A stretch of DNA of 13,691 nt. Origin: a virus. Its lineage: Duplodnaviria > Heunggongvirae > Uroviricota > Caudoviricetes. Both the position numbers and the translations under genes were made by a program. The notes beneath the pieces are model-generated. The model was given only the letters and a program-made list of their open reading frames with translations. It was not told where the DNA came from and searched no databases. Shown here piece after piece: positions 4,492 through 13,691 of this stretch. The stretch is taken from IMG/VR virus record IMGVR_UViG_2585427780_000001. One strand, given 5' to 3'. The first letter of the stretch is position 1. Every line of letters starts with the position of its first letter.

Positions 4492-4503
4492 ACTGTCAAT
4501 CTA

Positions 4504-11539: not shown

Positions 11540-11751
11540 CAGAACCTCGCCAGCCGATACCCGGGATGCCCCCGTCGTCGTGTAATCAGAGCCGCAAGGC
11601 GGCGCTCCCACTCCTGCCGTCCCTGCCTGATCTCAGATAAGTTTTCCATGGTCATCTGCTGACCATTAAAGGTGACGGATTTTCCGTCCAGCACCGCCAT
11701 TTCAGCTTCCGTATAACGCTGAATCATGGCTTCGATATCATTCTGGTTCAT
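11539..11751 (-). CDS. W: Head-tail joining protein, gpW-like, about 70 aa
   Basis: ORF 11539..11757. ATG at 11751-11749 forms an ATGA overlap with the terminase stop and has GGAGG 6 nt upstream; the ATG at 11757 has the SD abutting it. Size and position (terminase then W then portal) match lambda W. Confidence 0.7.
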   Translation of the reverse strand: MNQNDIEAMIQRYTEAEMAVLDGKSVTFNGQQMTMENLSEIRQGRQEWERRLAALITRRRGHPGYRLARF

Positions 11752-13371
11752 AACCATCCTCCGGAAGTCAGCCAGGGGTTAACATCGTCAGTTACTGTTT
11801 TCTTCCGTTTTTGTTTTTTAACAGGCGTGGATACCGGTTCCGGTGAGGATGACGGTTCGGTACTGTCCGGGACACACTCCAGCCAGGTTTCCCGGCTCGC
11901 CCACTCCGGTGCATCCGGCCAGCGGATCTTTTCGTATCCATGCAGAATGACCAGAGCCTCGGCATACACCATCAGGTCAAAAGCTTCGTTGGCACCGCGA
12001 CCCGGCTTACTCCATTTCCCGTCACTGCTCCGCTCTTCATACGTCAGTTCGTCGTAAAACCAGCTCCCCAGCCAGTCAGGGAAATGCACATAGCCGGGAC
12101 CTGGCGAGTCACGCCATAACGCGTTATTCACCCGGTCTTTCAGTGCATCCGTCTGAAGAAGCCAGAGCGGCACATCACCTGCGGCCTGCGCCCGTCGGCC
12201 CGTTCGTCCGGTGTTATCAGGGAATGTACGGGGGATCAGTTTTGCGCGCCGGATGCTGTCGCCCTTAAACAGGTAAATACGTTTACCAAGGCCATCACGA
12301 CGGCAACGACGCCAGAATTTATAGGCATTATCAGTGACCCCGTCTTCACCGCCGGAGTCCACCGCCATTGCCATCAGTCGCATTTGTTGAGAAGGATCGG
12401 AGGCCAGCGGCCAGCTTTTATGAAAAACATCCGTCAGCAGGACATCCCAGTCTTCCGGATAGCTGGCCGGATCAATTCGCTGGCTCTCCCCGTCGCTGTC
12501 ACCGCGCAATGACTGCGTGATGTTGTAACGATCAATAATCCAGCGTTCGCCACGGCTGCCATAGCCCGTTACCTGAACCACAAAACGGCGATGACGTCCC
12601 GCCTGCACATCCACTGTCGCCACAAGAAAATTAACGCCATCTGGCACACTGCGGGAAGGAACTGGCTCTGCCCGCTGCTCAAGCAGTTCACTTTTTCGTT
12701 GCTCCATGCTGGCGCGGGGAAGATAAGGTAATCCCCAGTCGGTGTTGATAACCGCCCTGAGTGTTTCTTCACTTCCTGTCGCTTCATACTCCTGTTCTGC
12801 AGTCAGTAATTTGTAAACCAGTTGCGCCCAGGTCTGATACGCAGCAGCTGGCCCTTCCATCCAGAAACTGGCGATACGGGAGCGGCGCGGTTCACCGGAA
12901 ACGTTGCCGTTACAATCAATGACCTGACCTTCACGCAACCAGACTCCTGCACTATTGAGCTCACGCTTTTTCTCCGCAGTGATAATGCCGCTGCAGTGCG
13001 GGCAAAGTAGATACGCCGCCTCACTGGCTTTAAAGGGATCCGGTTCATTACGGTAGCCGGTCATGGCATCCATGGCTGGCTGAAAATATTCACCGCAGTG
13101 CGGACATGGCCAGTACCAGCGGCGGCGGTCACCACGATTGTAAAGGGAAAGAATACCAGTCGTCGGTGGCGCTTCATGAGGCGACTTACGTCGCCATTTG
13201 CTGTCGCAGATGTCACGTCCCGGCGAGCTCTCCACCAGAGTCATCCCGGCGGACATAAATGTGGTGGTACGTTTTGAGGCCAGGGAGAAACCATCACCCT
13301 CGCTGTCGATATTCTCCGGAAAACGGTCGTAATCGGTTAAGGCGACAAACCGGTAATCCGACGACGACATA
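11748..13371 (-). pseudogene. A: Terminase large subunit (gpA-like), 5'-truncated by IS1 insertion; about 540 C-terminal codons remain
   Basis: ORF 11748..13385. Contains WPCPHCGEYF (compare lambda gpA ACPHCGEEQ) about 93 codons in, which suggests roughly 135 N-terminal codons are missing. The reading frame runs directly into the IS1 terminus at 13372; the apparent start MESL is encoded inside IS1. Confidence 0.85.
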
Positions 13372-13691
13372 GGTAATGACTCCAACTTATTGATAGTGTT
13401 TTATGTTCAGATAATGCCCGATGACTTTGTCATGCAGCTCCACCGATTTTGAGAACGACAGCGACTTCCGTCCCAGCCGTGCCAGGTGCTGCCTCAGATT
13501 CAGGTTATGCCGCTCAATTCGCTGCGTATATCGCTTGCTGATTACGTGCAGCTTTCCCTTCAGGCGGGATTCATACAGCGGCCAGCCATCCGTCATCCAT
13601 ATCACCACGTCAAAGGGTGACAGCAGGCTCATAAGACGCCCCAGCGTCGCCATAGTGCGTTCACCGAATACGTGCGCAACAACCGTCTTCC
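13372..13691 (-). mobile_element. IS1 insertion sequence, partial (about 320 bp of about 768 bp; continues beyond window end)
   Basis: 13372 onward reads GGTAATGACTCCAACTTATTGATAGTGTTTTATGTTCAGATAATGCCCGATGAC..., which I recognise as the IS1 terminal inverted repeat and adjacent sequence. It contains the 3' end of insB. Confidence 0.9.
13387..13691 (-). CDS. insB: IS1 transposase InsB, 3' partial (C-terminal about 101 codons; 5' part beyond window)
   Basis: Minus-strand frame translates ...[100 protein letters not shown], matching the IS1 InsB C-terminus. The frame is open to the window edge. Confidence 0.88.

Follow-up and report, generated by a model that had tools for sequence, protein, structure and literature searches.

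An IS1 terminus abuts a truncated terminase large subunit gene in an apparently defective lambda-like prophage of Escherichia coli

Disruption of lambdoid prophage genes by insertion sequences, those of the terminase included, is well documented (PMC2669165), and the finding described in the present paper is of this known kind. A close described case is the prophage Sp4 of O157 Sakai, in which an IS disrupts nu1 and the DNA is packaged nonetheless, Sp14 being the most likely source of the terminase (PMC2669165). Like Sp4, the locus examined here is a lambdoid prophage with a terminase inactivated by an insertion sequence, in a host that carries further lambdoid prophages (PMC2669165). In Sp4 it is the small subunit that is affected; here it is the large one, and the tape-measure gene in addition carries a stop codon. 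Mutations in the Walker A or Walker B motifs abolish packaging in the TerL protein of HK97, and the Walker A motif of lambda gpA is a deviant one (PMC9410871). The insertion sequence concerned, IS1, is a 768 bp element with inverted repeats of about 30 bp and target duplications of 8 or 9 bp (PMC12428005).

The window, i.e. the whole 13,691 bp stretch of DNA that was analysed, is the complete draft contig JORB01000096.1 (assembly GCA_000714385.1, Escherichia coli 6-175-07_S4_C1). ORF calling and the contig annotation both give its minus strand as a lambda-like late operon, in the following order:

Minus strand, first: terminase large subunit (terL) fragment, then a 70-aa W-like gene, then the portal gene (Phage_portal_2)
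Minus strand, after the portal gene: ClpP-protease/major-capsid fusion, cement-like gene, Gifsy-2-like gene
Minus strand, after the Gifsy-2-like gene: Z, U, V, G, T, tape-measure gene H, M, L and K

The terL fragment thus lies in the head-morphogenesis operon near the portal gene, the order is colinear with that of intact prophages, and the upstream small-subunit-like gene is beyond the window edge. The remaining genes of the window align without gaps to those of the intact relatives, the truncated terL and the H gene with its Q127amber codon being the inactivated ones. In the intact relatives the prophage has cspI, ynfN and gnsB as neighbours, as in the Qin region.

The intact terL of close relatives (2,100 nt, 699 aa) shares with lambda gpA the two-domain architecture GpA_ATPase (PF05876) plus GpA_nuclease (PF20454), with Pfam scores of E = 5e-81 and E = 1.8e-86 respectively. 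The lambda gpA stretch KSARVGYS, which we take to be its Walker A motif, aligns with GPARTGKT of the intact relatives in an alignment with 147 invariant columns, and the gene order of small-subunit-like gene, terL, W-like gene and portal gene is also that of lambda. In contrast, identity with lambda gpA is about 30%, the protein has 699 aa rather than the 641 aa of lambda, the upstream partner is a DUF1441 protein and not Nu1, the head gene is a protease–capsid fusion, and the copy in the window is without residues 1–159. The P-loop of the intact relatives is of the classical GxxxxGKT form, unlike the deviant one of lambda (PMC9410871).

Position 13691 is an assembly break within the multicopy IS1 and not a biological end: the window is truncated inside the element because the assembly broke in this repeat, the contig ending 320 bp into IS1. 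The other end, position 1, is at the boundary of the K and I tail genes, where homology with intact prophages continues, and this suggests that the strain has a second lambdoid prophage with a common I/J region. The intact relatives carry a lambda-cosN-like sequence, ACGGGGCGGGAGCGTCGCGG, which precedes the DUF1441 gene by approx. 150 bp (in NZ_CP019271, locus L004, about 1490–1530); the corresponding lambda sequence is ACGGGGCGGCGACCTCGCGG. This resemblance points to a phage that is probably a cos packager, with its cos outside the window.

The junction between terL and IS1 involves the following features:

11748..13371, minus strand: terL 3' fragment, comprising the last base of codon 159, codons 160–699 and the stop codon
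13363..13371, no strand assigned: the nine bases adjoining IS1, GACGACATA, in gene sense TATGTCGTC
13368..13370, minus strand: ATG of Met160, an internal terL codon and the start of the deposited 540-aa ORF KEL99271.1
13372..13401, no strand assigned: IS1 right terminal inverted repeat, GGTAATGACTCCAACTTATTGATAGTG..., identical with that of the annotated IS1A/IS1B
13387..13691, minus strand: 3' part of insB/insAB' (transposase), in the same orientation as terL and ending at the contig end

On the minus strand an ORF is open over 11748..13385 and its translation is a gpA-type terminase, the last 14 nt reaching into IS1 solely for want of an intervening stop codon. A megablast search of 5,426 complete E. 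coli genomes gave a match of 99.9% identity over query positions 1–1624 (window 11748–13371) that ends there, and when the whole window is aligned to intact prophages, the alignments are free of gaps and all start exactly at 13371. Compared with the intact terL of NZ_CP019271 and NZ_AP022215, the fragment differs at one of its 1,624 bases. From 13372 onwards the sequence (GGTAATGACTCCAACTTATTGATAG...) is the right inverted repeat of IS1, beginning with GGTAATG in agreement with the IS1-family terminus GGT(A/G)ATG, and all 320 bases of 13372–13691, i.e. the right inverted repeat and the 3' end of insB, are identical with annotated copies of IS1A/IS1B, the element known from E. coli K-12 (768 bp, InsA/InsAB'). 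The insB stop codon, TAA at 13387–13389 on the minus strand, is 15 nt inside the element end, as it is in the annotated IS1A, and the called 81-aa product matches the Pfam family DDE_Tnp_IS1 (PF03400). The window therefore holds the right 320 bp of the element, and insA, the frameshift site and the 5' part of insB lie past the contig end. These data bear out the preliminary description, which had read the terminase frame as running from 11748 to 13371 and then giving way to the IS1 repeat and the insB 3' end.

Homology with terL stops at 13371 and a complete IS1 terminus starts at 13372, so that the joint is at the exact terminal base of the element. Where IS1 reads GGTAATGAC, intact terL continues with ATGTTGACC, and the two have no shared sequence at the joint; the abutment of IS1 and terL is real and beyond a chance match. 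A match covering most of 13372–13691 was found in 4,958 of the 5,426 complete E. coli genomes, in which IS1 occupies a median of 10 places per genome. The IS1/terL junction itself was found neither in these 5,426 genomes nor, by exact pattern search, in the GTDB species representatives. In addition, CTCC at 13380–13383 of IS1 gives GGAG in the minus-strand sense, placed 9 nt ahead of the Met160 ATG (in the intact protein, ...SVNIMSSSDYR...), and it is because this GGAG precedes the ATG that the depositors called the 540-aa ‘terminase’ ORF.

As the terL sequence of the window starts at nt 477, it lacks 476 nt of coding sequence at the junction (codons 1–158 together with two bases of codon 159), which places IS1 inside the gene, as had been proposed, and not upstream of an intact start. 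The loss had been put at the first 135 or so codons; alignment to the intact 699-aa relatives gives about 159, and the lower estimate was probably due to the use of lambda gpA (641 aa) as the yardstick. The expectation that the Walker A region had been lost proved correct, the motif GPARTGKT (residues 72–79 of the intact relatives' protein, aligned with the corresponding region of lambda gpA) falling inside the missing 476 nt. The fragment matches only positions 124–247 of the Pfam GpA_ATPase profile, positions 1–123 of 247 being gone, and covers positions 1–294 of 294 of GpA_nuclease (E = 3.2e-86), and so retains the second half of the ATPase domain, the Walker B region, a complete endonuclease domain and the C-terminus. 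The window thus holds a fragment of a gpA-family gene (PF05876 plus PF20454) and not a functional member, and this copy cannot encode a packaging ATPase.

The other lesion of the prophage, which the preliminary description had also reported, is evident from comparison with the intact relatives:

4501..4503, minus strand: amber codon in H, Q127 to TAG (CAG to TAG), codon 127 of 1,024

The changed base is at window position 4503, and the codon splits the gene into ORFs of 126 and 894 aa. Against the intact prophage of strain WP8-S17-ESBL-05 there are five substitutions in 13,371 bp, all of them protein-changing and one of them H Q127amber. The 126-aa amber product was found on 18 contigs in all, and the amber allele is thus present on at least 17 contigs from other samples. 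Among the other amber-carrying loci that reach terL whole, five of five (L019, L020, L021, L023 and L024) have an intact 699-aa terL after the DUF1441 gene; over a shared 12,032–13,371 bp, only two bases separate each of L020 and L023 from the window, and three or four each of the other full-length loci. By these alignments, the amber codon is older than the IS1 event and common to a lineage. Since the closest amber-bearing relatives keep an intact terL, the IS1 is a recent, strain-private second hit, and the junction is the sole credible difference from the nearest relatives. The prophage was probably already tail-defective before IS1 arrived.

The two bases that set the contig apart from L020 and L023, at window positions 12233 and 9141, are the only ones private to it among its closest relatives. 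Each is a T to G change within an identical context, CGGG[T>G]GAT, and each turns Thr (ACC) into Pro (CCC), at terL codon 539 and protease–capsid codon 316 respectively. They resemble systematic miscalls in the draft assembly more than mutations. Relaxed selection, considered on the basis of the excess of amino acid changes, was dropped, as these two private changes resemble base-calling errors.

Only one IS1 junction is visible, as the contig stops before it reaches the left end of IS1, the target duplication or the 5' part of terL. We favour, with modest confidence, a simple insertion over a deletion or inversion bounded by IS1. The 768 bp IS1 would have transposed into the terL gene of a lambda-like prophage, ordered like the Qin-region prophages of other E. 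coli, between nt 476 and 477 of the 2,100 nt gene and oriented like it. The resulting 3' piece, starting at codon 159/160, would have neither start codon nor N-terminal region nor Walker A P-loop, and this prophage copy would then be unable to make a working packaging ATPase, IS1 being the second and very recent inactivating event after the H amber codon. Under simple insertion TATGTCGTC at 13363..13371 would be the target-site duplication, and on the far side of IS1 the DUF1441 small-subunit-like gene and cos would come before the 5' 485 nt of terL, with the 9 bp duplication TATGTCGTC; this 5' piece would be on a separate contig, the assembler having broken in the repeated IS1. The predicted left joint reads ...GTCAACATTATGTCGTC/GGTGATGCTGCC..., with the DUF1441 gene before it.

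The exact joint at the IS1 terminus is the expected product of transposition and would fit any joint made by the transposase. It would be just as exact had intramolecular transposition, or recombination between two IS1 copies, deleted or inverted the DNA beyond IS1, an account that we consider less probable than simple insertion while taking it seriously. In that event the 5' part of terL, the small-subunit gene, cos and perhaps the early region would be gone or elsewhere, and the prophage would be a remnant starting at IS1; with the median of 10 places per genome given above, E. coli offers many IS1 partners for such an event. To examine the far side we derived the product expected from the 5' fragment, which with a 9 bp duplication has the tail ...NIMSSVMLPTY, in 16 variants covering duplications of 7–11 bp, IRL or IRR, starts at M23, M33 or M56 and forms truncated by a contig end. 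None of the 16 was present by exact look-up in a collection of 15 billion proteins, although the 3' product of this assembly is in it, and a homologue search with the predicted 5' fragment returned many other truncated forms and not the IS1-junction form. This absence is weak to moderate evidence against simple insertion and favours a rearrangement, but an exact look-up easily misses its target through a one-residue difference, another gene call or a partner contig that ends at the junction. Against a rearrangement, the closest relatives are complete through the DUF1441 gene and terL and are otherwise nearly identical with the window, and a single insertion is therefore the most economical change.

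Another disruption was seen in a 5.3 Mb E. coli genome (GDJ accessions), in which terL is represented by a 163-aa N-terminal fragment (...PSVNSNRLI) and a 540-aa C-terminal fragment, P0110, that likewise starts at Met160 (P0110 and P0139). This appears to be an independent disruption of another kind, only a few bases away from the IS1 site. Truncated N-terminal pieces of the same terL allele are, in addition, common in public assemblies, and in the protein homologue search many different C-terminal tails start after the same residue. At the DNA level, at least four independent classes break exactly between nt 493 and 494 (...TCGTCGTCGGATT/ACCGG; window 13355/13354), which is 16 nt from the IS1 site, with the following unrelated partners elsewhere in the prophage:

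Partner in L005–L007: inverted piece of J, then further short inverted pieces
Partner in L008 and L009: gene G
Partner in L010 and L011: 73 nt of the protease–capsid gene, then tfa
Partner in L012: terL nt 795

These joints involve no IS and have microhomology of 0–2 nt. The protein tails indicate three more recurrent sites, near codons 88–89, 102–103 and 126, and one DNA example each places the break exactly at nt 268, 309 or 378, all of them in sequence that the window lacks. Related breaks were seen in L013 to L016, and one deletion starts between nt 478 and 479. In a K-12-like laboratory stock (H108) the match stops at terL nt 378, within a feature annotated beside a TipJ-family tail-tip gene. 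The stumps of decayed lambdoid prophages have the same allele, cut after its 5' part in many E. coli genomes; they differ from the window in that they keep the 5' part, have lost the 3' part by deletion and have no IS at the junction, whereas in the window it is the 3' part that remains, and the sequence ends at an IS1.

The protein search favoured short proteins near the query length, and a looser cluster of breaks at codons 155–166 may be a sampling effect; the recurrences at exact sites are not. A 300 bp test stretch was essentially whole (at least 80% covered) in 734 records of approx. 765 close matches (95% or better) in complete genomes, and the breaks are therefore a minority. That the IS1 site sits in a stretch of terL which breaks at preferred nucleotides is an idea to which we give little weight. 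If true, prophage decay would repeatedly involve nicking or cleavage at specific sites, with end joining or template switching as the next step; a topoisomerase or gyrase site, a nuclease, a recombinase quasi-site or template switching induced by a nick might be responsible.

Several other explanations of the breakpoints were considered and rejected. For an IS629 inserted at nt 492 and excised later, the IS629 junction at this position was found in 0 of the 5,426 complete genomes, and DNA hairpins at the breakpoints gave z-scores of -1.4 to +0.6, which are not significant. From the sequences alone, pseudo-ends of IS1, IS10 or IS608 fit poorly, as do an invertase crossover site and CRISPR PAM logic. 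A cos at the breakpoints is likewise a poor fit, the lambda-like cosN being found instead upstream of the DUF1441 gene.

Two further readings of the junction are both very improbable. In the first, the IS1 end would have made a new expressed gene, a truncated 540-aa terminase driven by GGAG and kept for interference with related phages, which would lack Walker A and retain the nuclease and portal-binding parts. The GGAG–ATG spacing, the ORF annotated by the depositors and the complete nuclease domain are in its favour, but we found no sigma-70-like outward promoter site in 13100–13691, and a junction private to one strain gives no sign of selection. In the second, terL and IS1 read paths would have been joined as an assembly chimera, the gene being intact in the cell, which the two likely systematic base errors of the draft and the ending of the contig in a repeat might suggest; however, a chimera would form in shared sequence and not where a transposon ends, whereas terL here meets IS1 exactly at its final base, the two having no k-mer in common at that point, and the same contig is recorded for two samples.

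Simple insertion and an IS1-bounded rearrangement alike leave a terL copy in the window that has lost the start of its ATPase. In this context, the preliminary statement that loss of the terminase prevents DNA packaging holds only in cis, as the packaging of Sp4 through the terminase of Sp14 illustrates (PMC2669165): by analogy, the terminase of a co-resident prophage could supply the function. Given the loss of terL together with the H amber codon, the prophage would very probably be unable alone to make infectious particles. The suggestion of a defective or cryptic prophage is likewise upheld, in that essential genes (the truncated terL and H Q127amber) appear inactivated within an otherwise phage-like order.

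The insertion of IS1 in terL would represent an ordinary route to prophage defectiveness, and this prophage probably no longer packages its own DNA unless a co-resident prophage gives it a terminase, as for Sp4. The locus offers a clean, small example of stepwise decay, in which a nonsense codon in H, present in several strains, came first and a strain-private IS1 second. It also illustrates that a feature running off the edge of a window can be merely the end of a contig that broke in a repeat. The sole wider potential of these observations is in the recurrent exact breakpoints of terL, which, if they reflect specific cleavage, would bear on how prophages get whittled down.
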